IMG/VR virus record: IMGVR_UViG_3300045391_004184
Span: 1-64,000 of that record
DNA: 64,000 bases
Source: a virus
Strand: one strand, 5' to 3'
Shown: one piece after another, positions 40,551 to 63,808 of the stretch
Numbering within the stretch: the stretch's first letter is position 1
Layout: each line of letters opens with the position of its first letter
The notes under the pieces: model-generated
What the model saw: only the letters and a program-made list of their open reading frames with translations
Database searches by the model: none
What the model was told of the DNA's origin: nothing
Translations under genes and position numbers: made by a program

Positions 40551-40951
40551 TTCTTTTTCTTCCTTCTCTTAATAGCTTTTTGACCATTAGAAACTCTTTG
40601 AACATTCTCAATCGAAGTCTTTATAGAATGGCATCCTTCGCATAAAACCTGAAATTCGTGGCTTTTAACAAATAATCTATTTATAAAATCATCCCAATTT
40701 GTCCAGCCATTTTTTACATCAATTACAGGGTTTTTATGATCAAGTTCAATATCCTTATTTCCAAAGGATTGTTTGCATTCTTCACAAGTATAAAATCCTC
40801 TTTCTATTCTTTGACGAGTTTTTGCTATATTTTTAAAGGGCCATCGAAAAGTGGATCTTCTTAATGTTGCAATTACAAATGACTTTAAATACTTTTGAAA
40901 AGTATTCTCATCTTTTTCTATTGCATTGTAATCGTTCTTTTTATTAGCCAT
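40547..40951 (-). CDS. HNH endonuclease
   Basis: CEECKQ...ELDHKNPV...N...LCEGCHSIKT. Confidence 0.75.
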   Translation of the reverse strand: MANKKNDYNAIEKDENTFQKYLKSFVIATLRRSTFRWPFKNIAKTRQRIERGFYTCEECKQSFGNKDIELDHKNPVIDVKNGWTNWDDFINRLFVKSHEFQVLCEGCHSIKTSIENVQRVSNGQKAIKRRKKKK

Positions 40952-41231
40952 TTAATAGTTTGTCCATTTTATCATTAAATTCATTATTATGTTTTTGTTT
41001 TAAATAAATGTTATATTCATCTTCAGTCATCCACATATTTTTTGAGAACGAAAGAATTCTTTCATTAAAAAATTCCATTTCAACTTTATTATACATTTCA
41101 TAATATTTACCATTATATGGATGATCAAAATAAATATTAACAGTATTTCCCGCCCAATCTATATTGTGAATAATATAATCTGTTCCGGAAAGGGGGGTGA
41201 CACACAATGGATTTAGGTAAAATTTATTCAT
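40944..41231 (-). CDS. small protein, C-terminal HxxxFxxKMxxLL family
   Basis: Ends KHNNEFNDKMDKLLNG. Confidence 0.65.
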   Translation of the reverse strand: MNKFYLNPLCVTPLSGTDYIIHNIDWAGNTVNIYFDHPYNGKYYEMYNKVEMEFFNERILSFSKNMWMTEDEYNIYLKQKHNNEFNDKMDKLLNG

Positions 41232-41548
41232 TTCAATAATTCTTCCATTTTATCTCTGAAAGCCTCATTATGTAATTCTTTTTCTGTAATAACGTCAAAA
41301 TAATGAGCTTGAATCCAAATTTTCTTTTTACTATTTTCAGGTTTTAAATAATATTCTCGTGAATTAGAAAAGATTGTTTCAAGTCTTTCTTTATAAATCT
41401 CATATCTTTTATCACTTAAAAATTCAAAAGAAGAAATTGTACGTGCGCCAGAATCATTAATTTCCATTTCAAAAGGGGAAACAACCGGAATAACAGTTTT
41501 ATGAGCACAATTTGAATATACAGTTTTAATTTTACAATATTTCTTCAC
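41228..41548 (-). CDS. small protein, C-terminal HxxxFxxKMxxLL family
   Basis: Ends LHNEAFRDKMEELLK. ATGA overlaps on both sides. Confidence 0.65.
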   Translation of the reverse strand: MKKYCKIKTVYSNCAHKTVIPVVSPFEMEINDSGARTISSFEFLSDKRYEIYKERLETIFSNSREYYLKPENSKKKIWIQAHYFDVITEKELHNEAFRDKMEELLK

Positions 41549-41823
41549 TTTAAAAACTCTTCCATTTTACTTTTAAAATCCTCATTATGTTTCTTATGTG
41601 CAATAGATTCGATTTGATAAATTTGATGTTCTGTCCATTCTATAAATTCATTAAAATCACGTTTAATAAACCTAGGAGAAACTAATATTTGAAAATATTC
41701 GGTTGTTTTTTTATTATAAAAACTTAGGCGAATACTATCATAAGACATATCAAGATTAGCGCTATATAAACTAAATCCATAATAATCTCTTCCCCTAAAA
41801 TAGGTTTCTATTTGCGATGTCAT
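41545..41823 (-). CDS. small protein, C-terminal HxxxFxxKMxxLL family
   Basis: Ends KHNEDFKSKMEEFLK. Confidence 0.65.
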   Translation of the reverse strand: MTSQIETYFRGRDYYGFSLYSANLDMSYDSIRLSFYNKKTTEYFQILVSPRFIKRDFNEFIEWTEHQIYQIESIAHKKHNEDFKSKMEEFLK

Positions 41824-42146
41824 TCTTTTTTCTTTTCAGTTTCTTTAATCCATCTATCATCAAATTGAGGCTTATTTTTATACATCCAAATAGCAAACAT
41901 AAGGTTGCAAGCTGCATGTGCTAAATGGTTTATATTGGATTCAGGGTCCAAATCTTCTCCCTGATTAAACTTATAAGTGTGTCTTAAAGATGCAGAAATA
42001 AGTCTTGAAAGCTCTATTCCTTGTGCCCAATTTCCTCTGTCATATTTCTTTTTTCCAAAGTCTAATACTTTCGCAATTTCAAAAAGGGCTTCCATGGGCA
42101 AGAGATCAAGAGGCTCTTTCCCAGAATCAAATTTTTTTCCGGCCAT
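41820..42146 (-). CDS. MazG-like all-alpha NTP pyrophosphohydrolase (DUF5664 / dATP-dGTP diphosphohydrolase N-domain-like)
   Basis: FDSGKEPLDLLP...FGKKKYDRGNWAQG...LRH...GEDLDPESNINHLAHAACNLMF, pattern recalled for that family. Confidence 0.5.
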   Translation of the reverse strand: MAGKKFDSGKEPLDLLPMEALFEIAKVLDFGKKKYDRGNWAQGIELSRLISASLRHTYKFNQGEDLDPESNINHLAHAACNLMFAIWMYKNKPQFDDRWIKETEKKKE

Positions 42147-42165
42147 AATTTTGTTCCTTGTTATG

Positions 42166-42384
42166 TTAATTGTTTAGGGATGTTTCTACTTTTTCTTCTG
42201 TTAATGCAGGTTTTTTGCTTGTAAGCATTTGAAGAAGTCCGAAAACCTCTTTTGCGGGGCGTTCTGCTAAATACTTGATAACACTCTCAATTTCAGAACG
42301 TGTTAATTGAAATAAATCATTTGGGGTCTTTTCCATCGTTTTTCTCCTTTTATGTATTATGGGTACTATTTTCGTTATTGTCAA
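42166..42384 (-). CDS. hypothetical small protein
   Basis: 72-aa ORF in the operon. Confidence 0.45.
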   Translation of the reverse strand: MTITKIVPIIHKRRKTMEKTPNDLFQLTRSEIESVIKYLAERPAKEVFGLLQMLTSKKPALTEEKVETSLNN

Positions 42385-42544
42385 TGAGTTCTAATATAAA
42401 TGTTAAAGTTGTTTGTGTTTTTTTAAGACAAATAGGATCGGGATTATGATATAACTTATTGTTTTGTAAAGGAAATTCTAATTTTATCAATAATTCCTCA
42501 AAATAATCCTTCATATATTGGTCAAATGTATTTAAAACTCTCAA
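42350..42544 (-). CDS. hypothetical small protein
   Basis: 64 aa. TTG start 8 nt after a GGAG embedded in the upstream ILEL codons. Confidence 0.4.
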   Translation of the reverse strand: MRVLNTFDQYMKDYFEELLIKLEFPLQNNKLYHNPDPICLKKTQTTLTFILELIDNNENSTHNT

Positions 42545-42741
42545 ATTAGCTCCAATATAGCAATAGGTCTAGGAACTTCTCTTTTACCTGTTTTATTATT
42601 AATAATATCTAAATACATTTCATTTCCCAATAAATCATAAAAATATGTTAATCTTCTACCTTGATAATCCTTTATAGAGATTGTGGGTTTTGTTTTATCT
42701 AATATATTTGAATATTCGCTTTCACTATATATTTTTAACAT
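42541..42741 (-). CDS. small protein, C-terminal ILEL family
   Basis: Ends VPRPIAILELI. Confidence 0.5.
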   Translation of the reverse strand: MLKIYSESEYSNILDKTKPTISIKDYQGRRLTYFYDLLGNEMYLDIINNKTGKREVPRPIAILELI

Positions 42742-42911
42742 AATTCCAAAACGGGGATAATAGTTTCATGAATTGACTTCGGTATTACAACGTACACAAC
42801 ATTCTCATACAAATCCCAATGTTCGTAATAATAAGAACTTATGGGAACAGAAAGACATAATGTATTGTTATAAAAATCATCTCTTTCGTCAAATGTTTCT
42901 ATTTTTTTCAC
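42735..42911 (-). CDS. small protein, C-terminal ILEL family (58 aa)
   Basis: Not in the ORF track. GTGA overlap upstream. Ends TIIPVLELC and overlaps the next ATG. Confidence 0.4.
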   Translation of the reverse strand: MKKIETFDERDDFYNNTLCLSVPISSYYYEHWDLYENVVYVVIPKSIHETIIPVLELC

Positions 42912-43102
42912 TTTAAATCCAATATAGGAATTCGACTTCTTATATGACCATTTTTCGAAATATAATTAATTACTAATTCTTTTTGATCAAATAAATTAAA
43001 AAATTCTATTATCTCCCCTAAGTTATGATCTACAACAAAATATGATTTAGGAGGATCTTTTATAACTTTTTCCCAAAAATTTTCTTCCGTCCATTTTTTC
43101 AT
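42908..43102 (-). CDS. small protein, C-terminal ILEL family
   Basis: Ends RSRIPILDLK. Confidence 0.5.
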   Translation of the reverse strand: MKKWTEENFWEKVIKDPPKSYFVVDHNLGEIIEFFNLFDQKELVINYISKNGHIRSRIPILDLK

Positions 43103-44132: not shown

Positions 44133-44380
44133 AATTCTCCTTTTAATACCTTTTCAACTAAACTTTGAATTAAAACTCTATTTTTCATAGAAACATTTGA
44201 AGGAACTCTTCCCCAAACTTTTCTCCAATCAATTTTAGTTTTATTTATTGGAGTAATAATATTCCAATTTCCAGGTAATTTTAATTTTTGTTCTTTATAT
44301 CCAATATCATTAAAAAAATATCCAGCACCACTAATATTATCTCCAAAACGATAAAATAATTCCAATAGTTTATTAATCAT
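44129..44380 (-). CDS. hypothetical small protein
   Basis: 83 aa, ATGA-coupled. Confidence 0.5.
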   Translation of the reverse strand: MINKLLELFYRFGDNISGAGYFFNDIGYKEQKLKLPGNWNIITPINKTKIDWRKVWGRVPSNVSMKNRVLIQSLVEKVLKGEL

Positions 44381-44700
44381 TTTAATATTTCATCCATCTT
44401 ATTATCAAACTTTAATTGTTCGTGAGCAATAATTAACTCTTTTACAAATTCTATAATTTCAAAATTTGTTGATTTATTCTCTTCATTTCCGGCGGCATAT
44501 CTTATAGGAATTAATGGTAAAGATCCTAATAGGCTATTTGGCTTTTTTTGAATATCTTTTTCAATTCCATACCCATATTCTTCAAAAACCATATCATAGT
44601 ACCGATTTCCAAATGAATCTTTCTCCGGTCTAAAGATAGCAAGTTTATTATCTTTAATAATTATTTTATATTCCTTAAATTGATATTCACGTTCTTGCAT
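44377..44700 (-). CDS. small protein, C-terminal HxxxFxxKMxxLL family
   Basis: Start moved to the ATG at 44700, 7 nt after the upstream stop. Ends HEQLKFDNKMDEILK. Confidence 0.6.
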   Translation of the reverse strand: MQEREYQFKEYKIIIKDNKLAIFRPEKDSFGNRYYDMVFEEYGYGIEKDIQKKPNSLLGSLPLIPIRYAAGNEENKSTNFEIIEFVKELIIAHEQLKFDNKMDEILK

Positions 44701-44707
44701 GTTTGTC

Positions 44708-45496
44708 CTATTTATGTAATGATTTACGTTTTTCTTTAGATAATAGATTTTGACGATTGGTTGCTTCTTTTCCACATTTTTTACAAGTATATCTTTGATA
44801 TTTACCAAAAGATGAATAATTATGACCATTTCTAGAAAATTCAGTACTTCCACAATTACAAACAAGATCTGTAGTATCAGTATATAAACTAAAATTAATA
44901 CTATTATCCCAAGGCTGTAATTTATGGTATAGTTCTTCTAATGCCAAAACATCAAATTTATTATATTCCTCCATTTCTTTCCAGGCGGCTTTATTTCCTT
45001 TTAAAACTTCCACCCATAATTTATGGCCGGGGAATTTCTTATGATCCAATTTCTTATATTTCTTACATAATTTATCAGATAGATATTCTAATTTATTGCT
45101 TGTAAAACCAAAGTTTTTTCTAGCAATTTTTACGGTATCAATTTTCTTATAAGAACTTGGCGGTTTTAAGCCATTAATAATAAATCTTGCGTTAAGTTTT
45201 TTAAGATCAAATGCATTAGAATTTTGACCAATAACAATATCACATTCATCTAATAGCTTCCAGATTTTCTTTAAAAGCTTCTTATCATCTTCAACGTTTT
45301 TAGCTTTACTTTGATCATGATAAATAAGTTCTTTTTTATCTAGCCATTTTGCACAAAAAGAAAGTACGAACCAATCTTGTTGAATTTGACTTAATCCAAT
45401 ATTTTGATCAAAAAGTGCCCAGGCGTGGGCTAAAATTGGGGCGGTCTCAATATCTAATAGTAATATTCGAGGACCTTTAGGAGCTTTTTTCTTCAT
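44708..45496 (-). CDS. DnaQ/RNaseH-fold 3'-5' exonuclease with C-terminal zinc ribbon
   Basis: LLLDIETAP (ExoI), GQNSNAFDLKKL (ExoII), YNKFDVLALEELY (ExoIII), CNCGS...CKKCG. Confidence 0.7.
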   Translation of the reverse strand: MKKKAPKGPRILLLDIETAPILAHAWALFDQNIGLSQIQQDWFVLSFCAKWLDKKELIYHDQSKAKNVEDDKKLLKKIWKLLDECDIVIGQNSNAFDLKKLNARFIINGLKPPSSYKKIDTVKIARKNFGFTSNKLEYLSDKLCKKYKKLDHKKFPGHKLWVEVLKGNKAAWKEMEEYNKFDVLALEELYHKLQPWDNSINFSLYTDTTDLVCNCGSTEFSRNGHNYSSFGKYQRYTCKKCGKEATNRQNLLSKEKRKSLHK

Positions 45497-45840
45497 CTTT
45501 TCTTCCTTCTTTTCTGGGCCATTGAAGAATTCTTATTAAAGATGTTATTCTTCTTTAACCAATAATATATTGATTTTTCTAATTTTTGAACTTGAGTTTC
45601 TGTTAAATTAATATCATATTCATCACTAAAAGCGTGTAAACATTCATGGAGATATGTACCTAATGTTTCTCTTGGAGATTGTCCATGTCTTATAACAATT
45701 TGTTTTAAATCAAAATTTGTTTCCCCTTCTTGTCTGTGATCTTTAGGAAAATTATCCGTCCACAATACCCTATATTTTGTATAAGGGCTTATTTGTATTT
45801 GAGAAGGTATGAGTTTTAACAATTTATTCCATTTCACCAT
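45493..45840 (-). CDS. small HExxH protein (putative zinc metallopeptidase-like)
   Basis: TYLHECLHAF. 115 aa. Confidence 0.4.
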   Translation of the reverse strand: MVKWNKLLKLIPSQIQISPYTKYRVLWTDNFPKDHRQEGETNFDLKQIVIRHGQSPRETLGTYLHECLHAFSDEYDINLTETQVQKLEKSIYYWLKKNNIFNKNSSMAQKRRKKR

Positions 45841-46099
45841 TTAATAATCTCTCCATCTTATTATTAAATTGTTCATTATGTAGATCCTTTTCAGATATAA
45901 AACAATCTTTCGAAAAAGTCGCAAATCTCCCTTTATTTAAATAAATTGATATTGTATTCATTTTTAAATGTTCTTCTCCTTCATACCATTTATCAAAATA
46001 AAATCTACCGTGCCAATTTTGATAAAATTTTTCCGTAATACTTGTGGGCCAAAATCGCATTTCTTCAAATACTTTTTCTTTCTTAAGTCTATATTTCAT
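45824..46099 (-). CDS. small protein, C-terminal HxxxFxxKMxxLL family
   Basis: Ends LHNEQFNNKMERLLNGEME. The next gene's ATG sits at the LLN|G junction. Confidence 0.65.
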   Translation of the reverse strand: MKYRLKKEKVFEEMRFWPTSITEKFYQNWHGRFYFDKWYEGEEHLKMNTISIYLNKGRFATFSKDCFISEKDLHNEQFNNKMERLLNGEME

Positions 46100-46311
46100 T
46101 TCTTTTCCAATAACCTTTTATTCTTATCTAAATTTCCCTTTAAAATAATATAACTATTTTCCATTTCATTTATAACATCTCTTATTAATACATACTTCTT
46201 ATAAGGTTTTAATTCCTTTAATTGTTTATATAATAATTTTGTTGCAAATTCTAATTCTTCTGTTATAATCTTTAATCTCTTTAAATTTCTATATTCATTA
46301 AGATTTATCAT
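46096..46311 (-). CDS. hypothetical coiled-coil protein
   Basis: 71 aa, coupled. Confidence 0.5.
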   Translation of the reverse strand: MINLNEYRNLKRLKIITEELEFATKLLYKQLKELKPYKKYVLIRDVINEMENSYIILKGNLDKNKRLLEKK

Positions 46312-46573
46312 TTAATAGTTTGTCCATTTTATCATTAAATTCTTCATAATGAATTTCTTTAATTTCATCTCTCTCATATAGATTATAATGTTCTTTTACT
46401 TCTTCAATACCAATTGCAGTTATTAGTGATTCAATTCCCCAATATTTTATAACATCATCAAGTTTAATGTGATTTAAAAGAGTTTGAGCATTGTATTTTC
46501 CTAGAACATCTGATGCGGAACATTCTGATATAACAAAATCAACCATTGGTTCTAGATCGGCGTATTGTCTCAT
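46298..46573 (-). CDS. small protein, C-terminal HxxxFxxKMxxLL family
   Basis: Ends IHYEEFNDKMDKLLNDKS. Confidence 0.65.
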   Translation of the reverse strand: MRQYADLEPMVDFVISECSASDVLGKYNAQTLLNHIKLDDVIKYWGIESLITAIGIEEVKEHYNLYERDEIKEIHYEEFNDKMDKLLNDKS

Positions 46574-46770
46574 TTTTTCAACCTAACCATATTCATTTCA
46601 ATTCTCATATCATCACTAAGAAATAAATTTGGTGTTTTTGTAATTTCACTTTCAATTGCAAGTAATTTGTGTAAATACACTTTCTTTTGACTAAAATAGT
46701 AACATTTAATTTTATGTTCTTTTTTTATTAACTTTTCTGGACGATCATTAAATTTATCCCAATTTTTCAT
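46570..46770 (-). CDS. hypothetical small protein
   Basis: 66 aa, ATGA-coupled. Confidence 0.5.
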   Translation of the reverse strand: MKNWDKFNDRPEKLIKKEHKIKCYYFSQKKVYLHKLLAIESEITKTPNLFLSDDMRIEMNMVRLKK

Positions 46771-47438
46771 TTCAAATCCTCTAATAAATGTTGCGACCGT
46801 TTTAACTTATAATTAATAAATGTTTCCTTTGGGATCACATTTTCAAATATTAATGCTGTTTTATATAATTTTTCCAAATAACGGTTTTTATCATAATTAC
46901 CGTCCCATTTATCCACAAGATTCAATGTCCCATCAGATTTATAATAAAAGAATGCTTTATCACCTTCATTATATTCCGAACCTTGTATTGCATCAAAAAC
47001 CTTTTGTTCATTTAATCTTTCGGGGTTTAAGACTTTCTGTGTCAAAGTTTTCTTCGTGCGCCATCTATTTATATCGGTAATATTTAAAATTTCTTTAGCA
47101 TAATTTTGATAAATTTCTAAAAAATCTGTCTTCTCTTCTATAATTGATTTAATGAGCTTTTCAATAAATTCTCTTAAAGCCGGTTCTCGTTTTCCGTCCC
47201 TTATAGAAGATCCTTTAGTTTTAATCTTTTGACCATCATACAATATATAGTTTTTAGCCTTTAATATAATAACTTTAGAAAATACCCCATCCGGTTCCCA
47301 TCTGATTTTTGAAGGGAATTGATTATTAAGTTCTTCTAGAAGTTTTTGTTGTTCTTCTGAAGAAAATGATTCGCCATTATTTTTTGCGACCATTATAGAA
47401 TCTGTATCACAATTTACAAGTTGGAAATTATAAGTCAT
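46767..47438 (-). CDS. family B DNA polymerase, C-terminal fragment (motif C + thumb)
   Basis: LVNCDTDSIMV (motif C, DTDS) 10 residues from the start. LKAKNYILY (KKRY-like). Confidence 0.8.
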   Translation of the reverse strand: MTYNFQLVNCDTDSIMVAKNNGESFSSEEQQKLLEELNNQFPSKIRWEPDGVFSKVIILKAKNYILYDGQKIKTKGSSIRDGKREPALREFIEKLIKSIIEEKTDFLEIYQNYAKEILNITDINRWRTKKTLTQKVLNPERLNEQKVFDAIQGSEYNEGDKAFFYYKSDGTLNLVDKWDGNYDKNRYLEKLYKTALIFENVIPKETFINYKLKRSQHLLEDLK

Positions 47439-47593
47439 TTTATAAGTCCTAATGCTTTTTTAAGTTTATAGGTTTCTGCAACAGTTTGTTTATGTAATGT
47501 TCCACCTTTTAAACGAGCTTCAATTATTTGTTCTTTTTTTAAAAGTTTTACTCGAATTTTATGTCTTTGACGATCTCGATCAATTTTATTCAT
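47435..47593 (-). CDS. small basic protein (52 aa) inside the polymerase split
   Basis: Not in the ORF track. MNKIDRDRQRHKIRVKLLKKEQIIEARLKGGTLHKQTVAETYKLKKALGLIK. ATGA overlaps on both sides. Confidence 0.5.
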   Translation of the reverse strand: MNKIDRDRQRHKIRVKLLKKEQIIEARLKGGTLHKQTVAETYKLKKALGLIK

Positions 47594-47805
47594 TTCAAAA
47601 AATCTTCCATCTTCTCGTTAAAGTTATTATCATGATCTTCTTTTTCAGAAGCTAAATAATCTTTAGGAATCATCCATCCTTTAATAATAACATAATTTGT
47701 CATTTCTTGATCAACTTTATAATATTCATTTTTATTAAATTCATCTTGTTCAAAATTATTTTTATAATGTCCATTAAAGATTTTAATTCTGTATCTCAAA
47801 TTCAC
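47590..47805 (-). CDS. small protein, C-terminal HxxxFxxKMxxLL family, inside the polymerase split
   Basis: Ends DHDNNFNEKMEDFLK. Overlaps the 3' end of the polymerase N-fragment by 23 nt. Confidence 0.6.
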   Translation of the reverse strand: MNLRYRIKIFNGHYKNNFEQDEFNKNEYYKVDQEMTNYVIIKGWMIPKDYLASEKEDHDNNFNEKMEDFLK

Positions 47806-53290: not shown

Positions 53291-53317
53291 TTTAATCCTT
53301 CTATGTTAAATGTTATT

Positions 53318-53378: not shown

Positions 53379-53385
53379 AAACTTT

Positions 53386-55687: not shown

Positions 55688-55730
55688 AATTCTCCTTATT
55701 ATATCTCTTATATAGTATGTGTTCATATTT

Positions 55731-56033: not shown

Positions 56034-56352
56034 CTTTTAATAAATCTTCCATTTTAGAAGCAAATTGTTCATCATGCTTTAATTTTGCAAGTTTTTCGGG
56101 CTTTAAATTTTCAGCTTGAAAACCTTCTGTTCCAATCATTTCCCCATCTAGAAAATATGAGATTTGATTATTTTTTGTTTCAACAACTGCTGGTCCTGAA
56201 GGATTATGGAAGTACTTCATAATATGAAATTCTTTAATAAGATCTATCCCTTTTGTTGTTTGATAATTGGGACAAACTTTTACGAATTCTTCCTTAACAG
56301 TTGTTGTAATATGAGGTTGATCATTCCATTTAAAAGTAATAGTTCCGGTCAT
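56026..56352 (-). CDS. small protein, C-terminal HxxxFxxKMxxLL family
   Basis: Ends KHDEQFASKMEDLLKDE. Confidence 0.65.
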   Translation of the reverse strand: MTGTITFKWNDQPHITTTVKEEFVKVCPNYQTTKGIDLIKEFHIMKYFHNPSGPAVVETKNNQISYFLDGEMIGTEGFQAENLKPEKLAKLKHDEQFASKMEDLLKDE

Positions 56353-56675
56353 TTCTCCTCCAGTTTATTAACATTAAAATTTTTATAACAATTATAATTG
56401 TATTTATATTTAAATTCTTTAGAGCCTTCTTCGGCTATTCTAATAGCCATTGCCGCAACTTGTATTGCTTCTGCGAATACATCTTCGGCTTTTTGTTTTC
56501 CTCGGTGCTGATCTATTAAAGCTTGTGATAATTCTCCAACTTCTTCAACCAATGCTGCTAATAAATGTTCATTGGAGGGAAATTTTGTTCTAGCGAAATT
56601 TAATTCCGATTCTACACAATAAATGGTTCTTTGTAATAATGGTTTATCGAATTCCTTATTTAATAACTTTTTCAT
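56349..56675 (-). CDS. MazG-like nucleotide pyrophosphohydrolase
   Basis: LVEEVGELSQAL ... EDVFAEAIQVAAMAIRIAE (E-x2-E / helical MazG pattern). 108 aa. Confidence 0.55.
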   Translation of the reverse strand: MKKLLNKEFDKPLLQRTIYCVESELNFARTKFPSNEHLLAALVEEVGELSQALIDQHRGKQKAEDVFAEAIQVAAMAIRIAEEGSKEFKYKYNYNCYKNFNVNKLEEK

Positions 56676-56953
56676 TACTTTTCCTCTTTTAAAAAGCTAG
56701 CAAATTTTTGATTAAATTCATTATTATGTTCTTCTTTACAATCAATAATACTTTCAGAAGGTTTAGTCCATACAGATTTTTTTCCATTATTAATAAGAAT
56801 GACGTTTCCATTAATTATTTCTCCATCATATTTTTGATCCCAATAATATTTATCTTCATGGGGATGGGCGATAAAATATTCATCCGTTATTCTATTCATA
56901 TTTTTCCAATAATCTTCTTTAAAATAAACTTCTTTATTTAATTTAAATCTCAT
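56675..56953 (-). CDS. small protein, C-terminal HxxxFxxKMxxLL family
   Basis: Ends EHNNEFNQKFASFLKEEK. Confidence 0.65.
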   Translation of the reverse strand: MRFKLNKEVYFKEDYWKNMNRITDEYFIAHPHEDKYYWDQKYDGEIINGNVILINNGKKSVWTKPSESIIDCKEEHNNEFNQKFASFLKEEK

Positions 56954-57309
56954 TTTAAAAGCTCTTCCATTTTTTTACTAAAATCATGTTTATGTAATCT
57001 TTTATCAATCCATTCTTTATTGAATTCCATAGAATCATTAACTCTATCTAAATCATTAGTCTTTTTTAAGGTTTTCGCGTAGAATTTGATTTTGTATACT
57101 TTTTGTCCTTCCACAATATCTTCATATGAAAATGATTCGGTTGATTTTCCAATCGTCATCTTTCTAATTTCTTTTTTACTAATTAAACTAGCAATTAAAT
57201 CGTACATACATTCATATCCGCAGCTATTTAAAAAATAGCTATCAAGTTCTCTATGCTCTTTTTCACAATTTGTACATTTTACAGCAAACTCTAATAGAGA
57301 TTCGGACAT
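56950..57309 (-). CDS. small protein, C-terminal HxxxFxxKMxxLL family (Cys-rich N-terminus)
   Basis: Ends LHKHDFSKKMEELLK. N-terminus contains CTNCEKE...CGYEC. Confidence 0.65.
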   Translation of the reverse strand: MSESLLEFAVKCTNCEKEHRELDSYFLNSCGYECMYDLIASLISKKEIRKMTIGKSTESFSYEDIVEGQKVYKIKFYAKTLKKTNDLDRVNDSMEFNKEWIDKRLHKHDFSKKMEELLK

Positions 57310-58529
57310 TATTTTAACCCCTCAAGTGGGATTGTTTTTCCCAAATGTTTGTACTCGTGCTCTTTATTTCCGCCTTCAGAAATAATCCAAATAACGTCAC
57401 TACTTAATTTAATTTGAGAACCATTATAATAACCATCTGTTAAAATTATAGAAAGATCTGGACAAGTTTTTTTAATAAGTTCTAATGTTGGAAGGGGGTC
57501 TGTTCCTCCTGCCTGTATTTCTTGTTCCTTTAATCTTCCTTTCATTTTATATTTCTTATTATAATAAACATCTGTATGCCATAATGCTAATTGACAATTT
57601 TTACTTCCGGCTTTAAGAAATTCATCAATAATATCTAAAAACTGATTAAGTTCCTTATGTGAAATAGATCCTGAAGTATCAATATACATATTAATTCTAG
57701 GAATTCTACTTAAAGATGTTCCTGGAGCATAAGATCCATATCTTTTATTGGGTCTTTTCCATGAATGTTCTCTATCTTGTGACATTACAGTTCTTTTAAT
57801 AGCCGATCTTAAAATCTGTTTATAATTAAGTTTGGTTAAAAATTTATCCAATTCCTTTAAAAAATCTTGAACATATTCTGGCGCTTGTGAATGTCCAAAT
57901 TGAGTTTTTTCTAAAGTTCTTTGAATAAGATTTTTTGCCTCCCTTGCAAGTCTTTCTTTTTCTTCCTCTGATAATTGTTGCCATAAATGTTCATCGAGAG
58001 TTTGCGGTCCTTCTCCATTTCCTTCTTGGAATTTATCTTTATTAGCTTCTTTATTTTCTAATAACAATTGATAATAAACTTCCATGGATTTATGAATGGG
58101 AAATGGTTGTCCATTTTTTTGTTTCCATTCAGAAACATTAATACATCCTTTTGGAAGTCTTTGAACAATAGCACCATTTTTTTCCTTCTCTGGAATATAT
58201 TGATTAATGGCCATATCTGCTGCAATATTCCACATTTGACGCTCTTTCATATCAATTTCCATTTGCGTCCATCTAAAAATATGTTTATGCAACAAATGTA
58301 ATACTTCATGTTGTAATACTGCGACTCTTTCAGGTTTATCTAATTTTTCAAAAAAGTCAGTATTAAAATACATTTCGTATTTCTGGAGTTTTTCATTATA
58401 TCCAATGGCCGCCGTAGGAACAGTTCTTGTATCAAACTTAAAATTAAGTTCTTGAAGAAATGCCCCAATAAATGGTTCCAGATTTAAAACCTGATAAATC
58501 GCAGATTGTAATTGTTCTTTAATCTTCAT
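57309..58529 (-). CDS. VWA-domain protein with N-terminal putative metallopeptidase domain (DUF2201-type)
   Basis: VLQHEVLHLLHKH (HExxH), NIAADMAINQY, MIDAS-like YIDTSGSIS, GGTD. Confidence 0.75.
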   Translation of the reverse strand: MKIKEQLQSAIYQVLNLEPFIGAFLQELNFKFDTRTVPTAAIGYNEKLQKYEMYFNTDFFEKLDKPERVAVLQHEVLHLLHKHIFRWTQMEIDMKERQMWNIAADMAINQYIPEKEKNGAIVQRLPKGCINVSEWKQKNGQPFPIHKSMEVYYQLLLENKEANKDKFQEGNGEGPQTLDEHLWQQLSEEEKERLAREAKNLIQRTLEKTQFGHSQAPEYVQDFLKELDKFLTKLNYKQILRSAIKRTVMSQDREHSWKRPNKRYGSYAPGTSLSRIPRINMYIDTSGSISHKELNQFLDIIDEFLKAGSKNCQLALWHTDVYYNKKYKMKGRLKEQEIQAGGTDPLPTLELIKKTCPDLSIILTDGYYNGSQIKLSSDVIWIISEGGNKEHEYKHLGKTIPLEGLK

Positions 58530-58752
58530 ATAATTTTACCAGTAATATCCCTTCATAGTATTTAATTGAATTGTATGAGGCATTAAATTCATTATAGAAA
58601 CAGTATTGATAAGGATATTGAACAATCATTGCTGTTTTTTCCTTATAATCTATTACCGTGTAATAAGGATGGACCCTTCCGCCGTCTATTACATAAACCT
58701 CATACCTACAATCCCATTTTAATTTCGCTTTAAGAACTTTCCAGAATAACAT
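58519..58752 (-). CDS. hypothetical small protein
   Basis: 77 aa, between the VWA and MoxR genes. Confidence 0.45.
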   Translation of the reverse strand: MLFWKVLKAKLKWDCRYEVYVIDGGRVHPYYTVIDYKEKTAMIVQYPYQYCFYNEFNASYNSIKYYEGILLVKLYED

Positions 58753-59807
58753 TATTTTGCTAAAATATCTCTTAAGTATTTTCTAACTTCAGGAAAATTT
58801 CCACAAACTCTATCCAAAATTGTTCCAGCTTTTTCTTTGCGTTTAAATTCAAGCTCGGAAATTAAATGGGGTCCTTGATCTGCAGGAATTGCAAGAATTA
58901 CTTTTGCTAATAATTCATCGCTAATTTCTCCATTATCCACAATATCTTTTACGGTAATGGAAATGTGTCCCATTTTATAATTTTGGGGGTCACTGAAGGT
59001 TTTAAGTTTTGCTAGAGATTTTTTCTCTTTATCTAGTAAATCTTTATATCCTACAGGGGCTTCATCATGTTTAAATTGATAAAAAGCTTTTCCAACATTT
59101 TTTCCTAAAACACTTTCATAAATTTCAATTTCCATAATTTCAGGAATACCAGCTTTTAGAGCGGCATTTAATTTAGAAAGGGTTCTTGGAGAAATGTATT
59201 TTGAACCTGCAATAGATCCAACATCTTCTGGTGCTACATATGAAAATGTATTGGTTTCTACAAAACTAACAACAAATGAGTCCCAATCACTCGCTTTCAT
59301 ATGTTCAACAAATGATTTTTTATCATATCCAACTTTAAAGATTTCAAAACGATCTTTTAAAGCGGCGTCCATGTGATTTGTATCATATTGTTCGCCTTCA
59401 GGATTAATACATCCCACAATGATCCATCCTGGAGGTAATTCATAATTATGGACTTTTCTATCAGTCAATAATTGCATGAAAGTGTTCATTACAGAAGTGG
59501 TTCCTCTATTTGGTTCTTCTAATAATAATACTCCTTCACCTTCTGTTGGAAAAAATTCTGGCGTATGATGTTTCGTAACTTGCCTTCCTTTTACAACTTC
59601 AATAGATGGAAAACCGATCAAATCTGGAGATTCCAAATATGCTGCTCGCAAATCAATAAATGGTAAATTATTCTTTTTGCACCATTCTTGGACAATTTGA
59701 GATTTTCCAATTCCTGGAGGACCCTCAAATAGTGGGTTAAATACTAGGTTTTTTTGTCGTGCGCGTCTCGCAAGGTCCATTACATCAAAAATATTCGATG
59801 GTTTCAT
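58752..59807 (-). CDS. MoxR/AAA_5-type ATPase
   Basis: Walker A GPPGIGKSQ, Walker B VLLLEEPNRG, IIVGCINP. Confidence 0.8.
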   Translation of the reverse strand: MKPSNIFDVMDLARRARQKNLVFNPLFEGPPGIGKSQIVQEWCKKNNLPFIDLRAAYLESPDLIGFPSIEVVKGRQVTKHHTPEFFPTEGEGVLLLEEPNRGTTSVMNTFMQLLTDRKVHNYELPPGWIIVGCINPEGEQYDTNHMDAALKDRFEIFKVGYDKKSFVEHMKASDWDSFVVSFVETNTFSYVAPEDVGSIAGSKYISPRTLSKLNAALKAGIPEIMEIEIYESVLGKNVGKAFYQFKHDEAPVGYKDLLDKEKKSLAKLKTFSDPQNYKMGHISITVKDIVDNGEISDELLAKVILAIPADQGPHLISELEFKRKEKAGTILDRVCGNFPEVRKYLRDILAK

Positions 59808-59812
59808 TTCTT

Positions 59813-60040
59813 TTATTCCCCCTTTAGGAATGAGTTAAATTTGTTATTAAAATCTTTATTATGTTCTTCTTTTACACTTTTAAATCTTTCAGGATAATAT
59901 CCAGTTTCTCTATTATCATTATTTATAATAAAAACCTTCCAATTTGTTGAAAATATTACTTTATATATCTTACCTTCAGTAATAAATTTATTATCACCGG
60001 CATTAATGCAAATAACTTCTTCTCCGGCTTTAAACATCAA
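59813..60040 (-). CDS. small protein, C-terminal HxxxFxxKMxxLL family (KOW/SH3-like N-terminus)
   Basis: MMFKAGEEVICINAG... ends EHNKDFNNKFNSFLKGE. Confidence 0.65.
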   Translation of the reverse strand: MMFKAGEEVICINAGDNKFITEGKIYKVIFSTNWKVFIINNDNRETGYYPERFKSVKEEHNKDFNNKFNSFLKGE

Positions 60041-61011
60041 TAATCGCTTCCAATTCCCATTGACATTCTTTTATCTTCAAATCCTTTATGATATTCAAGA
60101 ATTTCTTTATGTAATTCTTCTATTACAACTTCAATTGTTTTATCATGAAGTTTTGAACGAACAATTATTTCTCTAATATCCGCTGGAGTAAAATCATCTG
60201 TTTTTTTAGATTGAATTAATTCCTCAGCTTTAATACTTATCGGTTCTTTTGCAAAAAACTTTAATAATTCTAATCTTTGTGATGAATTTGGACATCCGAC
60301 TTTAATTTTATCATCAAATCTTCCACGTCTGTTTACAAGATTAGATTGAAAATTATTAACATAATTCGTGGTTGCTAGGATAAATACTGGAATTTTAAAG
60401 GTTTTTTCTTGATTATCTAATAATGATAATAGAGAACTATCAGAAGGCATTCTTCTATCTTCCATTTCAACGCCTCCTATATCCTCTACAATCAATATAA
60501 GCTTTTCTGTTCCATCGTATTCAAAGGATTTAATAAAATCTTTAATTTGATGGGATTCATATTTATCGGTATGCCAGATAATTACTGTTGTTTTTCCATC
60601 TGCTACATATTTATTGGCGACCACGTTTATAGCGGTGCTTTTACCGCTTCCAGGGGGTCCATAAAGCAACATTCCTCTTTTGGGAATATCAATACCCATT
60701 TGAGGGTATAAATCTAATTTATTAAAGAAACAATCAATTTTATCGGTAATATTTTGCGTATTTACAAAAGTTTCTAGGATTTTATCGCTTACAAATGAGG
60801 TGGTTTCTAATTTTAGACCTCTGCTAGTTTTTTTAATGCTATATATTCCAGGATGAACTTTATAAGGTTCTAATTGATTTTCATCTTCAATATATTCCAA
60901 TTGGACAAATGTTCCATCAGGGGATAACGATGCATAGTCGCTTTCGTTTATTTTAAAACCTTCAGGAAGTTCGGCTAGTTTTAATTTAGAGCTTATTTTA
61001 AAGTGTCCCAT
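60037..61011 (-). CDS. classical AAA+ ATPase
   Basis: Walker A GPPGSGKST, Walker B LILIVEDIGG, sensor-1 ILATTN. Confidence 0.8.
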   Translation of the reverse strand: MGHFKISSKLKLAELPEGFKINESDYASLSPDGTFVQLEYIEDENQLEPYKVHPGIYSIKKTSRGLKLETTSFVSDKILETFVNTQNITDKIDCFFNKLDLYPQMGIDIPKRGMLLYGPPGSGKSTAINVVANKYVADGKTTVIIWHTDKYESHQIKDFIKSFEYDGTEKLILIVEDIGGVEMEDRRMPSDSSLLSLLDNQEKTFKIPVFILATTNYVNNFQSNLVNRRGRFDDKIKVGCPNSSQRLELLKFFAKEPISIKAEELIQSKKTDDFTPADIREIIVRSKLHDKTIEVVIEELHKEILEYHKGFEDKRMSMGIGSDY

Positions 61012-61271
61012 TATTCTCCCCCATTAATAATCTTATCGGCTTTTTCATAGAAAACTTTAGTATGTTCTTCTTTTTCTGAAATTAATTCACTATAATGAAA
61101 AAGCATATCGCCGTAATTCGCATTGGGGTTTTTTAAACGAACAACTTTTTTATTATTAGTATCATGAACTACTTCATAAAATTCAATAAAATTATATCCG
61201 TAATATTCATTATCTCTAATAATATGATATCTGTGTGGTAATAAATTTACTCTGTTAATTTTATATTTCAT
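61011..61271 (-). CDS. small protein, degenerate member of the C-terminal motif family
   Basis: N-terminal MKYKINRVNLLPHRYH is paralogous to 61268..61516. Ends EEHTKVFYEKADKIINGGE. Confidence 0.6.
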   Translation of the reverse strand: MKYKINRVNLLPHRYHIIRDNEYYGYNFIEFYEVVHDTNNKKVVRLKNPNANYGDMLFHYSELISEKEEHTKVFYEKADKIINGGE

Positions 61272-61516
61272 TTTAACATTTCTTCTATTTTATTATTAAA
61301 ATCTTCATTATGTTCATCTTTTTCGGATATTAATTCACTTGGTCTAAAAATCATATTATGATCAGGTCCTTCAGGACTTTTTAATGAAATTAAACCAATG
61401 TAATTACTATTATTACTTTCATAAAAAGTTTCAAAATCAAAACTAAAATATTTACCATCTAAAATATTATGTCTTCTAAAAGGTGATAAGTTTTCCCTAT
61501 TAAGCTTATATTTCAT
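61268..61516 (-). CDS. small protein, C-terminal HxxxFxxKMxxLL family
   Basis: Ends EHNEDFNNKIEEMLK. Confidence 0.65.
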   Translation of the reverse strand: MKYKLNRENLSPFRRHNILDGKYFSFDFETFYESNNSNYIGLISLKSPEGPDHNMIFRPSELISEKDEHNEDFNNKIEEMLK

Positions 61517-62411
61517 TTAAAATTCTAATATATTCCCTTTCAGTCTCTTCTAAATTTAAATTATATCTGAAATCTTCTACAACATAAGATCTTGTGTCTA
61601 ATGCTGTTAATTTTACGTCCGCATTTCTAGAAATCGCGGGAACCGCACAATGAACTCTTCCACTAATAACTTTATCGGCATTTTTCATAATTTCTAAAGT
61701 TTCTTCCCAGCTTTTTAATACTTTTGGTTCTGGAAGTCCTATTTCTACGGCCTTTAATATTTCTTCAGAAAAAGCACAATATACTTCAGGTTTATATTTC
61801 TTATAGAATTCAAGGTATTGATTATAATATTCATTAAGTTTGTTTTTATCTTTCCAATCATCTTTTGAAATGGTTTTTTGGGGATCGCACCAGATCATTA
61901 TATTATTGAATCTACTAGTTTTTTCATTATTATCATATGCAAAATATGCAGGGCATGGTAATAGTTCATTTTCAATATTTGCATTAATTAATAATTCATT
62001 TGCCAAATGATCTCTTGTAATGATTTTATGGCGCCCGAATAATTTATGCATTCCTTCAATTTCTCTTGTTCTTCTTAATATTTTACTATTAATATCTCCA
62101 AGATTCATACAGGTTCCAATTCCCATAAATAGTTTCTTAGAATCTTTATGTAATTCAAATATGTTTAATAGGTTCTTATATTTTTGGCTTTCTTGAAAAC
62201 TATCCCATAACCAGGGAGTTCCACATACTATTAATATATCATATTTATTATTTAAATACAATTCATTATTTTCCATTGGTTTATGATCATTTAAAAATAG
62301 ATAATCATGGGTATGGGTTTTAAAAGCTTTTGATAATAGATTTTTAATACCTTTAACAATTACGCCATCTGTTGGATTATTTTGATCGGCACCTATTAAT
62401 AGTATATTCAT
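61506..62411 (-). CDS. polysaccharide pyruvyl-transferase-like protein (tentative)
   Basis: ILLIGADQNNPTDGVI ... ITRDHLANELL ... VISGRVHCAVPAISRN resembles the PS_pyruv_trans layout from memory. Confidence 0.4.
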   Translation of the reverse strand: MNILLIGADQNNPTDGVIVKGIKNLLSKAFKTHTHDYLFLNDHKPMENNELYLNNKYDILIVCGTPWLWDSFQESQKYKNLLNIFELHKDSKKLFMGIGTCMNLGDINSKILRRTREIEGMHKLFGRHKIITRDHLANELLINANIENELLPCPAYFAYDNNEKTSRFNNIMIWCDPQKTISKDDWKDKNKLNEYYNQYLEFYKKYKPEVYCAFSEEILKAVEIGLPEPKVLKSWEETLEIMKNADKVISGRVHCAVPAISRNADVKLTALDTRSYVVEDFRYNLNLEETEREYIRILNEI

Positions 62412-62704
62412 TTTAAGAATTCTTCCATCTTATTATTAAAGTCTTTATCATGTATTTCTTTTTCATTCATCAAATAATCTTTATGCCAGCTTCCTAAATA
62501 TTCATTTGAATCATAAATTTCTATACAATCATAAAAATCATCACTTTTTGATCCTTTATATTCTTTTTCATATTCAATTTCAATAATTCTATTTAATTCC
62601 TTAACATAAATTTTAAATCCATTTTTTAACTTTTCATATGATGAATCTTCAGCATCAGATTTAAAAACTTTATCAATTTCTTTTTCCTTAAACATATATC
62701 TCAT
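62408..62704 (-). CDS. small protein, C-terminal HxxxFxxKMxxLL family
   Basis: Ends IHDKDFNNKMEEFLK. Confidence 0.65.
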   Translation of the reverse strand: MRYMFKEKEIDKVFKSDAEDSSYEKLKNGFKIYVKELNRIIEIEYEKEYKGSKSDDFYDCIEIYDSNEYLGSWHKDYLMNEKEIHDKDFNNKMEEFLK

Positions 62705-62955
62705 TTCAAAAAATCTTCCATTTTCTTGTTAAAAGCTTTTTCATGTAAATATTTTTCGGCAAGTTTGAATCTTTTCGCTAAACGAGTTTCCTGTTCACCA
62801 AGTTCTTTTATAATAAGATACTCCTCATTGTGACCATATATTTCAGAAACAGTGTAAACTTTATTTAATTCTAAATCATTAGCCATGAGGGCAACTAAAT
62901 TATTAATTTCGACAGATCCATCAATCATTACTTTATCACCGGCTTTAAATTTCAT
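62701..62955 (-). CDS. small protein, C-terminal HxxxFxxKMxxLL family (KOW/SH3-like N-terminus)
   Basis: MKFKAGDKVMIDG... ends LHEKAFNKKMEDFLK. Confidence 0.65.
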   Translation of the reverse strand: MKFKAGDKVMIDGSVEINNLVALMANDLELNKVYTVSEIYGHNEEYLIIKELGEQETRLAKRFKLAEKYLHEKAFNKKMEDFLK

Positions 62956-63527
62956 AATTTAATAATTGCAACCTGATCTTGTACAAAGTTTATAAGTTTC
63001 TCTGGTTTATCTTTTAAAAATTCATCAACCGCTAATTTTGCTCCAGGACAAGTGGGAGCATTATAATCATCAAATACAATAATTCCATTAGGAACTGTTC
63101 TATTATAAAAGAATTCTAACGATTCTTTAACGGATGTATAAATATCGCAATCTAAATGTACTAAACTAAATTTTTCATCTTTTATGACATCTGATGTTTC
63201 TTTAGGAAATAGTCCTTTATGAAATGATACATTCTTATGGGGTTTTAATAGTTCTTGAACATATTCTAATGAAGTGTTTTTAAAATCACCTTTTTTATGA
63301 AGATCAATACCTTTAATAGATTCTGGCATTCCTTCAAAAGTATCAAATAGATATAAATGTTTATTGGGATTATTTGATGCTAATAAAAAAGCTGTTCCGC
63401 CTTTCCATACACCGACTTCCGCAATAGATCCTGGAAGTTTTTCTGTTTGTTTGCAATATTCCACAAGTTTAAATAAACGTGGCCTGTCAACTACAGTATT
63501 ATTTGTTGCTTCTTTTGGTAAATTCAT
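62952..63527 (-). CDS. TylF/macrocin-O-methyltransferase-family SAM-dependent methyltransferase
   Basis: GSIAEVGVWKGGTAFLLA, LYLFDTFEGMPE, HLDCDIYTS, GIIVFDDYN...CPGAKLAVDEF. Confidence 0.7.
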   Translation of the reverse strand: MNLPKEATNNTVVDRPRLFKLVEYCKQTEKLPGSIAEVGVWKGGTAFLLASNNPNKHLYLFDTFEGMPESIKGIDLHKKGDFKNTSLEYVQELLKPHKNVSFHKGLFPKETSDVIKDEKFSLVHLDCDIYTSVKESLEFFYNRTVPNGIIVFDDYNAPTCPGAKLAVDEFLKDKPEKLINFVQDQVAIIKL

Positions 63528-63808
63528 TTTAATAATTGCTCCATTTTCTGTTCAAATTGTTCATCATGTATTTCTTTTAAACTTATAACAATTCTTTTGG
63601 GAATAGTTAATTTTTTAATTCCATCAACTAAAAGACAAATATGTTCTTCACTATATTTAAAGTCTTTTGACGCTTCTAGTCCTTCATAGTCATTATCATA
63701 TTTCCAATCAATACCACCAAAATGAAATCCTTTCCTGGACCATTTAATAACTGTAACACAACTTTCATATTCTTTTTCAAATAGCTCTTTATGGATTTTA
63801 TATCTCAC
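63524..63808 (-). CDS. small protein, C-terminal HxxxFxxKMxxLL family
   Basis: GTG start (GTGA overlap). Ends IHDEQFEQKMEQLLK. Confidence 0.6.
   Translation of the reverse strand: MRYKIHKELFEKEYESCVTVIKWSRKGFHFGGIDWKYDNDYEGLEASKDFKYSEEHICLLVDGIKKLTIPKRIVISLKEIHDEQFEQKMEQLLK

Follow-up and report, generated by a model that had tools for sequence, protein, structure and literature searches.

Poxviruses encode many paralogous ankyrin-repeat proteins whose C-terminal PRANC/F-box-like motif docks them to host Skp1. Portable terminal targeting peptides are also known from the C-terminal XB peptide of SspB (for ClpX), whose tail ends hydrophobic-hydrophobic-Lys-COOH, from the T4 capsid-targeting sequence and from the cargo-loading peptides of encapsulins. 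Here we describe a family of small proteins from the early/replication region of an uncultured phage that shows features of both. Like the poxvirus proteins it has many paralogs per viral genome, variable N-terminal domains (N-domains) and a short conserved helical C-terminal motif. In contrast, the poxvirus proteins belong to a eukaryotic virus, carry ankyrin repeats and have a known partner, whereas the N-domains of the phage family are tiny beta domains, and no sequence similarity is known between PRANC and the phage module. The peptides of SspB, T4 and encapsulins, which bring unrelated proteins to one machine, likewise are short, portable and terminal, and the SspB tail even has the same hydrophobic-hydrophobic-Lys-COOH end as the phage motif, but they are shorter than the phage module, mostly unstructured and in some cases N-terminal or cleaved.

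The family, called M here, consists of 19 minus-strand ORFs of 71–119 aa between positions 40944 and 63808 of the window (the whole analysed stretch of 64,000 nucleotides) and has the C-terminal motif H-x3-F-x2-K-M-x2-[LF]-L-K. All 19 ORFs listed in the initial annotation could be recovered at their positions on the minus strand, with the motif 0–4 residues from the stop codon. Searching all six frames of the whole 64-kb window with the motif as regular expression gave 18 strict matches and one loose match (44380), compared to 0.04 strict and 0.27 loose matches expected from shuffled sequence, and every one of the 19 is C-terminal and encoded on the minus strand. When all six-frame ORFs were scanned with an HMM of the 30-residue module, the same 19 were recovered (E 2e-12 to 4e-6), the best match outside of them having E=0.25. 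The family was not found in Pfam, PHROGs or PDB, the motif had no sequence match in PDB even at E<=10, and when 1.84 billion proteins were searched exhaustively, M turned up only in the studied phage and in a few related metagenomic contigs, which contain 24 further members. M is a protein family that is new and very narrow in its distribution, and the initial annotation was right in not recognising it, as it is present in no library searched.

Named by their left coordinates, the genes are arranged as follows from the upper end of the region. The stop codon of M63524 (63524..63808, 94 aa, GTG start, class I N-domain beginning MRYKI, motif codons 63527–63568) overlaps the ATG of a TylF-type methyltransferase gene. 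M62701 (62701..62955, 84 aa, motif 62704–62745) has a class II N-domain (MKFKAGD) and M62408 (62408..62704, 98 aa, motif 62411–62452) a class I domain, the latter gene preceding the pyruvyl-transferase gene. Two further class I members, M61268 (61268..61516, 82 aa, motif 61271–61312 with Ile in place of Met) and M61011 (61011..61271, 86 aa, degenerate motif at 61023–61064, ending KADKIINGGE), are 46% identical in their N-domains. The extension of M61011 contains the Shine-Dalgarno sequence (SD) of the AAA+ gene, GGGGGAG; the AAA+ ATPase is a candidate partner of the M proteins, yet it is also present in L021, a contig without the motif in 22 kb. Short extensions with their own GG-rich SD are also found in the KF variants M59813 (59813..60040, 74–75 aa, class II, motif 59822–59863), whose extension KGE encodes GGGGGA, and M56675 (56675..56953, 92 aa, class I, motif 56687–56728), whose extension KEEK encodes GAGGAA. 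M56950 (56950..57309, 119 aa, motif 56953–56994) has a Cys-rich N-terminal part and comes after a DUF2201 metallopeptidase-VWA gene; further along are the unclassified M56026 (56026..56352, 108 aa, motif 56035–56076, ending LLKDE) and the class I-like M55731 (55731..56033, 100 aa, motif 55737–55778, ending KMNELLDK). No M gene lies within 50218–55400, which holds a primase-helicase and an Erf SSAP, and none adjoins the RecA-like gene, so that the earlier statement that nearly every enzyme gene is bracketed by M genes was too general.

Beyond this gap follow M49574 (49574..49894, 106 aa, TTG start, N-domain possibly FlbD-like, motif 49577–49618) and M49269 (49269..49577, 102 aa, FlbD-type, motif 49275–49316), which precedes the gene for PolB fragment 1, while M47590 (47590..47805, 71 aa, GTG start, short class I, motif 47593–47634) sits between both PolB fragments. 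The remaining members are M46298 (46298..46573, 91 aa, motif 46310–46351), with an N-domain unrelated to the rest, the class I M45824 (45824..46099, 91 aa, motif 45839–45880), M44377 (44377..44700, 107 aa from the ATG at 44700, unclassified, motif 44380–44421 without the His), the weakly class I M41545 (41545..41823, 92 aa, motif 41548–41589), M41228 (41228..41548, 106 aa, GTG start, unclassified, motif 41231–41272) and the class I M40944 (40944..41231, 95 aa, motif 40950–40991), after which the HNH gene comes.

The module common to these proteins comprises about 28 aa, a short last beta-strand and a 17–18-residue amphipathic helix, and profile-profile alignment (hhalign) of class I against class II confined the homology to the last 28 columns. 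The conserved helix residues His-4, Phe0, Lys+3, Met+4, Leu+7 and Leu+8 all point to one face within a 140-degree arc, and His, Phe, Lys and Leu are nearly invariant (39–43 of 43 members). AF2 models showed a small beta domain followed by a strand (62–64) and a helix (65–81) for the class I member M61268 (pLDDT 90.4), and beta strands with a C-terminal helix (66–83) for the class II member M62701 (pLDDT 69). Instead of docking elsewhere, a conserved helix could simply pack against its own N-domain.

The N-domains are mostly beta-rich and SH3/PRC-barrel-like, one being of FlbD type and some having other folds. Residues 41–84 of M49269 match FlbD (PF06289) with 26.3 bits, above the curated Pfam cut-off of 24.7, and M59813 is a borderline case of DUF6501 (PF20111) with 23.1 bits, just under the cut-off of 23.8. 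Both matches are confined to a single N-domain and stop before the module, and neither family is matched by any of the remaining 17 members. No Pfam match was found for the N-domain of M49574, and the proposed 'KOW-like' domains have no Pfam support, the bona fide FlbD and the borderline DUF6501 domain being found instead. About ten members share one N-domain type and can be aligned from end to end, having in common an invariant Tyr and the start M[KR][YF]K[LI]; therefore the N-termini are not all unrelated. Between class I and class II no homology precedes the last 28 residues. Plain duplication and divergence suffices for this half of the family, and portability rests on the other members.

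Extended to all members, this would mean that M consists of divergent paralogs of one beta-barrel-plus-helix ancestor, in which the barrel diverged after many duplications and the helix was kept as a core or homodimerisation element, with no external partner and no real portability. Such an origin would fit the full-length alignment of ten members, the same order of beta strands, short strand and terminal helix in both modelled classes, the high pLDDT of the terminal helix (86–93) and the FlbD, DUF6501, PRC and SH3-type matches, which all suggest small beta-barrels. Nevertheless we regard it as rather unlikely, as the homology between the classes is limited to the module and a helix on very different cores should co-vary with them, whereas its key residues are near-invariant and the similarity of the module is uncorrelated with that of the N-domains (Spearman 0.07, Mantel p=0.28). 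Moreover, a 123-aa member in contig L148 (930–1301) corresponds to the full-length L021 gene 12788–13081 (46% identity, E=2e-26) plus a 20-residue motif tail, showing that its other domain exists helix-free in L021, and there are a 207-aa member in L152 and a helical 73-aa member in L123. The module is portable and is found on non-homologous N-domains.

At the DNA level the motif copies are only loosely similar, with a median identity of 63% over a 57-nt region and a longest exact match of 8 nt in the median. Codons of conserved residues follow the genome usage (Lys AAA 14 and AAG 5, Phe TTT 17 and TTC 2) and Leu+7 is encoded by five different codons. This indicates constraint at the peptide level, with synonymous sites varying according to genome codon usage, and judged by this pattern selection on the peptide maintains the module. 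From the three readings offered in the initial annotation, the portable tag holds in its testable parts (peptide constraint, the 28-residue limit of homology and the addition of the module to an L021-type domain), the recombination linker finds no support as a selected DNA element, and translational coupling has partial support, confined to the motif's last third, leaving the H-x3-F-x2-K half and the preceding strand unexplained. An alternative view would be that the repeat is primarily a nucleic-acid element, either an initiation/coupling region or a recombination linker spreading the cassettes, and that the peptide motif is a by-product of one reading frame. The motif tail indeed reads AUG-GAN, A/U-rich spacer and AUGA, and M40944 and M46298 have 34 identical nt in common although their N-domains are unrelated, a match from which, together with the missing correlation between module and N-domain similarity, exchange of the module between members is concluded to have occurred. 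However, synonymous positions are free, the strand and the invariant His and Phe that follow it are located 25–80 nt upstream of the start without nucleotide conservation, no RNA structure was found at the motif (z-scores -1.0 to +1.2), no Rfam family matches it, and the typical exact matches are too short for efficient homologous recombination.

The junctions to the downstream genes also bear on this question. Altered junctions had been described for M45824 and M46298 only, but four members (M40944, M45824, M46298 and M49269) have lost 1 nt from the A-run (TTAAAATGA to TTAAATGA), which changes the LLK end to LLN plus an extension, and M56026 has a 1-nt insertion. The ATGA stop/start overlap occurs throughout the early region, including 19 of 45 junctions behind non-member genes, and is therefore not specific to the M family. 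The Met-Glu/Asp codons of the motif (ATG-GAN) put a GGA 11–12 nt before the next start, outside the range of the genome's SD, which is GGA at 5–9 nt. Extensions with a canonical SD were found in six of ten members without ATG-GAN but in only two of 33 with it (Fisher p=0.0008, a statistic that takes in possibly orthologous, non-independent members), and since members without ATG-GAN mostly have such an extension, the motif tail is probably dual-use, serving as peptide and as downstream initiation region. The SD role of the motif GGA itself we only infer, because its spacing is unusual and non-Met residues at +4 show no preference for G-ending codons (one of nine). Non-member genes also tend toward L-E-x-K endings, and two other groups of tandem small genes from the same phage clade have last codons overlapping the downstream initiation region (Leu/Met-Glu giving GGA): the ILEL-ending family of the window, with TTG as Leu codon in three of four members and GGA 6–8 nt upstream, and the LLMEFYE-ending family of L274, with GGA 5 nt before the overlapping ATG. 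Unlike the M module, which is four times longer and constrained as peptide, these endings comprise 4–7 residues, and an SD at canonical spacing largely accounts for them. A nucleic-acid origin of the motif would gain from these endings and from the new canonical SD that accompanies the loss of AUG-GAN, but it is at odds with the GGA at 11–12 nt, and altogether we consider it improbable.

In dnaX, -1 ribosomal slippage is stimulated by an upstream SD-like element, and programmed -1 slippage on A_AAA_UGA, with the GGA 10–12 nt upstream as stimulator, would fuse the small protein to the downstream enzyme with the helix as linker. The downstream ATG of a standard junction lies in the -1 frame, an A preceding the Lys codon would permit re-pairing, and a slow UGA and the SD-like GGA are present. 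Yet the frame relation varies between the four deletions, the one insertion and other junctions with TAATG or a gap, and these indel variants argue against a conserved mechanism; a downstream stimulatory structure was not found, and ATGA overlaps in A-rich context are common behind non-member genes, making slippage very improbable.

Orthologs in related contigs were identified for M45824 (P0024 in L148, 53% identical), M44377 (L148 3375–3653, 43%) and M41228 (L123 455–814, 41% overall and 72% in the last 18 aa), together with a partial ortholog of M56026 in L108. Between orthologous members identity is 41–53%, against 60–80% in core genes, and the members are best conserved in their last 18 residues. 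Different members occupy the same loci in relatives, namely behind the VWA gene and before PolB, HNH and the 46096 homolog, and the 1-nt-deletion junction of M46298 is shared with the same-locus gene of L148, whose N-domain differs. Comparison of these loci shows M genes acting as cassettes directly upstream of resident genes; related phages gain, lose and replace these cassettes. In this they resemble the lineage-specific paralog families and accessory cassettes of mosaic phages, small fast-evolving genes between conserved genes that are swapped at gene boundaries, but differ in having 19 copies in one genome, with N-domains that do not align and a 28-residue C-terminal module that unites them, and nothing like such a family was found in PHROGs.

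In summary, we favour, with a probability of about 0.5, that M proteins are fast-turnover, lineage-specific early accessory proteins that carry a portable helix for docking or oligomerisation at the C-terminus. The conserved helix face would bind a single common partner, either a hub of the phage or one of the host, or else join M members together, so that different N-domains would gather at the same place. Each cassette would run up to the start codon of the gene behind it, and therefore its last codons, AUG-GAN and the A/U-rich Leu-Leu-Lys, may double as initiation region of that gene, as the correlation with canonical SD extensions suggests. Translation of the following gene, which mostly has no SD at the usual distance, is probably coupled to that of the M gene. 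For the phage this would mean that the helix probably links many small proteins to one common partner.

The motif H-x3-F-x2-K-M-x2-[LF]-L-K ends 19 small minus-strand ORFs of 71–119 aa (M genes, 40944–63808), placed 0–4 residues before the stop codon, and the set proposed in the initial annotation could be confirmed at all positions. Searching the whole window in six frames with a regular expression we found 18 strict matches and one loose match, all on the minus strand and all C-terminal, compared with 0.04 strict and 0.27 loose matches in shuffled sequence. An HMM of the shared module recovered exactly the same 19 proteins (E ≤ 4e-6) with the next match at E = 0.25. The neighbouring genes also agree with the earlier description in their Pfam and profile assignments and include a TylF-type methyltransferase (from Pfam), a pyruvyl transferase, a classic AAA ATPase, a MoxR ATPase, a DUF2201 metallopeptidase-VWA protein, a MazZ-like diphosphohydrolase, an RNase-H-fold exonuclease and a RecA-like protein. 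That the members bracket nearly every enzyme gene was overstated, because 50218–55400 is without a member.

No family known to the Pfam and PHROG libraries covers the module: Pfam has no family common to the members, and the best common PHROG family matches two of the 19 (E = 0.022), the rest being single weak matches. Searching PDB sequences with the motif profile we found no match at E ≤ 10. When 1.84 billion cluster representatives were searched exhaustively with an HMM, 22 matches resulted, namely the proteins of the window itself, a TPR protein as false positive and the database proteins P0006, P0007, P0016, P0018, P0021 and P0024, and word-index protein searches with full-length and C-terminal profiles found only the window proteins together with P0006 and P0007; the contig look-up for P0004 and P0021 gave none. 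The non-window proteins and a DNA-pattern scan of metagenomes led to the related contigs L123/L147, L108, L148-151, L152 and L153, whose core proteins are 46–80% identical to those of the window and which carry 24 additional members. The motif is absent from the more distant relatives L021 (primase 46% identical), L274 (PolB 64%) and L275 (PolB 59%). In 185,579 bacterial and archaeal species genomes a strict motif-plus-stop DNA pattern had no match and a looser pattern gave 120 loci, all chance or internal matches, and in IMG/VR 20 loci fitted a degenerate pattern of the motif-tail DNA, all by chance and none with the motif in frame. Among the looser-pattern matches the segment HSEEFFDKMDELLN, recurrent and internal in proteins of Flavobacteriales genomes, was judged unrelated. 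The conserved internal segment EHIHSEEFFDKMDELLNYPKVDPHGEPIP recurs in Flavobacteriales proteins (L156, L169, L182, L210 and others) and fits the motif regular expression; this match was judged coincidental, as the segment is internal in much longer ORFs with about 100 residues on each side. The segment presumably resembles DtxR/MntR-type repressors. A literature search found no description of such a family. The M family is new, and its distribution is extremely narrow.

Three readings of the motif had been proposed, a docking or degron tag, a DNA linker for recombination and a translational-coupling element. Codon choice at the conserved residues mirrors the genome-wide usage, with Lys+3 (counted from the motif Phe as 0) encoded by AAA 14/AAG 5 compared with 82/18% in the genome, Phe by TTT 17/TTC 2 and His by CAT 17/CAC 1, and Leu+7 is encoded by five different codons and is replaced by Phe, Ile or Met in some members. 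The DNA of the 57-nt motif region shows a median identity of 63% between copies and the longest exact match has a median of 8 nt, with one exceptional pair at 34 nt and one at 21 nt. RNA folding of six junctions revealed no structure and no Rfam family matches the motif region. The constraint acts on the peptide and not on the nucleotides. Recent gene conversion as the cause of the motif conservation was rejected because the DNA identity is only 63%.

In the C-terminal alignment the conservation exceeds 14 residues and covers a hydrophobic strand, [PK]-[DE]-x-Phi-Phi-[ST]-E-K-E, followed by a helix. Aligning class I (MKYK-type N-terminal domain) against class II (FKAGD-type) with hhalign, only the last 28 columns align (96% probability). 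For one member of class I (pLDDT 90.4) and one of class II (pLDDT 69) AlphaFold2 predicts the same architecture, a small beta domain followed by a strand of three residues and a terminal helix of 17–18 residues. Among 43 members the Phe is present in 43, Leu+8 in 42, His in 39, Lys+3 in 36 and Met in 34, and on a helical wheel these conserved residues all lie inside a 140-degree arc with the opposite face being variable and polar.

The N-terminal domains are of several types. About ten members have a common type that starts with M[KR][YF]K[LI] and contains an invariant Tyr as well as the segment F[DN]xxY[ED]G, and the FKAGD type is common to two members. The member at 49269–49577 has a bona fide match to the FlbD domain (PF06289, 26.3 bits at a gathering score of 24.7) in residues 41–84, ahead of the motif, with no FlbD match in the other 18 members, and the member at 59813–60040 shows a borderline match to DUF6501 (PF20111, 23.1 bits, E = 6.6e-5) under the gathering score of 23.8. 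The remaining N-domains match nothing, and the earlier label 'KOW-like' was dropped, no KOW family being among the Pfam matches of any member (E ≤ 0.1). Fold searches suggest a weak SH3/PRC-barrel resemblance (E ≥ 0.085), and comparing the class I model with PDB and BFVD by Foldseek we found no match below E = 0.085. Thus, from its N-domain types the family is partly a paralog series and partly one module on different domains.

A 123-aa protein from the related contig L148 (930–1301) matches the whole of a 97-aa protein from L021 (12788–13081; 46% identity, E = 2e-26) and then adds PNAKEQHNIKFGDKMDKLLK. Judged from sequence comparison, the same short terminal peptide is carried by non-homologous domains and is in this sense portable. 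Within the window the similarity of the module and that of the N-domain are uncorrelated (Spearman 0.07, Mantel p = 0.28), and the two genes with the best DNA match, a run of 34 identical nt that takes in the rare codons GAC and CTA, have unrelated N-domains. Comparing gene neighbourhoods, L108 has two FKxGD-type members 3' of the VWA gene where the window has two members and a MazG instead, L152 has three members (one of 207 aa) 5' of PolB compared with two in the window, and L123 has four 5' of the HNH gene compared with three. Before the homologue of the gene at 46096, L148 carries an FlbD-like member in place of M46298, the window member starting at 46298; both have the motif and the 1-nt-deleted junction in common and show no similarity upstream of the motif. 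The homology between the window and L148 as well as L123 starts at the motif, and since any two members align there a gain or loss breakpoint cannot be placed. Orthologous members are 41–53% identical, compared with 60–80% for core genes, with the tail as their best conserved part. That the N-domains are adaptors specific for the neighbouring enzyme was rejected, because the same enzyme adjoins different N-domain types in relatives. Of the proposal that the motif copies are DNA linkers for recombination, the exchange of modules between genes has stood, and the short median exact match gives no support to a selected DNA element.

Regarding translational coupling, ATGA overlaps are found throughout the early region, at 19 of 45 junctions behind non-members and at 10 of 19 behind members. 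In the LLK-to-LLN variants the A-run has lost 1 nt, with the downstream ATG unmoved. A dnaX-type −1 frameshift fusing the ORF to the downstream gene was rejected because their frame relation is not conserved, 1-nt indels shifting the frame at five of 19 junctions and three more being of other types. The Shine-Dalgarno sequence of the genome is GGA at 5–9 nt (36 of 80 genes). Behind the M genes GGA is located at 11–12 nt in 13 of 19 cases, outside this usual spacing, and the sole GGA behind members comes from the Met-Glu/Asp codons (ATG-GAN). Six of ten members without ATG-GAN have a short extension carrying GGGGGA, GAGGAA or similar at normal spacing, compared with two of 33 members keeping ATG-GAN that have an extension with a canonical Shine-Dalgarno sequence (p = 0.0008, the members not being independent). 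Where +4 is not Met, its codon seldom ends in G. From the correlation between loss of ATG-GAN and such extensions we infer a dual use of the motif tail, with coupling as the main mode of translation of the downstream genes. A coupling element would account for a portion of the motif's last third.

A second family of small minus-strand genes (40326–40550 and 42350–43102) ends in ..[IV]-L-[ED]-L-x* (NIYILELI, FILELI.., IAILELI, IPVLELC and IPILDLK), four of the genes being in tandem. In three of these four tandem genes the Leu is encoded by TTG (9% genome usage), resulting in TTGGA 6–8 nt before the next start, and the ..ILEL* ending looks imposed by the downstream Shine-Dalgarno sequence. The distant relative L274 (787–10008, PolB 64% identical), which lacks the M motif, has a different family with a short common ending, Phi-Phi-M-[ETS]-[FW]-Y-E*, found on eight small genes within 12 kb with ATGGA 5 nt before the stop-overlapping ATG (TATGAATAA). 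The ..ILEL* family and this ..LLMEFYE* family of L274 show the dual-coding principle in a purer form than the M genes.

The window looks like a tailed phage with a GC content of 27–36%. Large plus-strand ORFs from 1 to about 36 kb, with the terminase at 631–2103 (plus), are presumably the structural and packaging genes, and the early/replication region from about 36 to 64 kb is tightly packed on the minus strand. No close cultured relative of the phage was found; its PolB shows about 30% identity to Salinibacter phages and its nearest cultured terminase relative, from a phage of Silvanigrella aquatica, 29%. It sits in a large uncultured clade, in which its PolB has over 2,300 relatives (E ≤ 1e-40), and the identical phage (100% identity) was found as short contigs in four other samples. 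These contigs (L022–L026) have ends at 61053, 62499–62511 and 62704, at motif copies or no more than about 60 nt away from them, and two of the contigs end exactly at 62704. The motif repeats appear to break short-read assemblies, so that metagenomes probably under-represent such phages and contain them in fragments.

Two ORFs (47783–49276 and 46767–47438), separated by M47590 and a 52-aa ORF, encode the family B DNA polymerase in split form; L021 has the same split with a gap of just 126 nt, and other clade members possess an unsplit PolB of 710–740 aa. At 57309–59807 the MoxR-type AAA_5 ATPase adjoins the DUF2201 protein (putative metallopeptidase and VWA-like domain), of which no relatives were found in IMG/VR, and the classic AAA (PF00004) ATPase is encoded separately at 60037–61011. 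The gene at 41820–42146 has the MazZ-like dATP/dGTP diphosphohydrolase N-terminal domain (PF18909, 114 bits), and PF18909 proteins occur with base-modified (Z-genome) phages. Neither the small ORF 56349–56675, initially named MazG, nor a 115-aa protein (45493–45840) with the HExxH-like motif YLHECLHAF, conserved in L021 and L148, has a Pfam match. Cell-surface polysaccharide genes are interleaved with M genes at 61506–64000 and in L025, comprising the TylF-type methyltransferase, the pyruvyl transferase and a Glyco_transf_9 heptosyltransferase just past the window end. In the related phage L153 (5531–8169) a phosphoribosyltransferase, a NAMPT/NAPRTase and a Macro domain protein look like an NAD salvage set.

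Of the three readings the docking or degron tag is the best supported, as the terminal helix is portable, constrained as a peptide and has a one-sided conserved face; from this we infer both a binding partner and the function of the M proteins. They might form a hub-and-adaptor system, in which about 20 small adaptors with different target-binding N-domains would use one docking helix in order to bring diverse targets of the host or the phage to a single machine, a tentative model with a probability of roughly 15%. Candidate machines would be the classic AAA ATPase (60037–61011) or the MoxR ATPase/DUF2201 metallopeptidase-VWA pair (57309–59807), and the adaptor repertoire would be reshuffled between related phages. 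Such a system would be the bacterial-virus counterpart of the poxvirus ankyrin/F-box strategy, and the M family resembles viral multi-paralog families with a common terminal docking motif. The M family would also be a clean natural example of dual coding, with the last codons of a conserved peptide doubling as the downstream initiation region. Should the helix be a docking tag, one interaction surface would be served by 19 of about 65 early-region genes (roughly 5.6 kb), and a host-takeover or anti-defence strategy with a common hub, of a kind that to our knowledge has not been described for phages, would be indicated.
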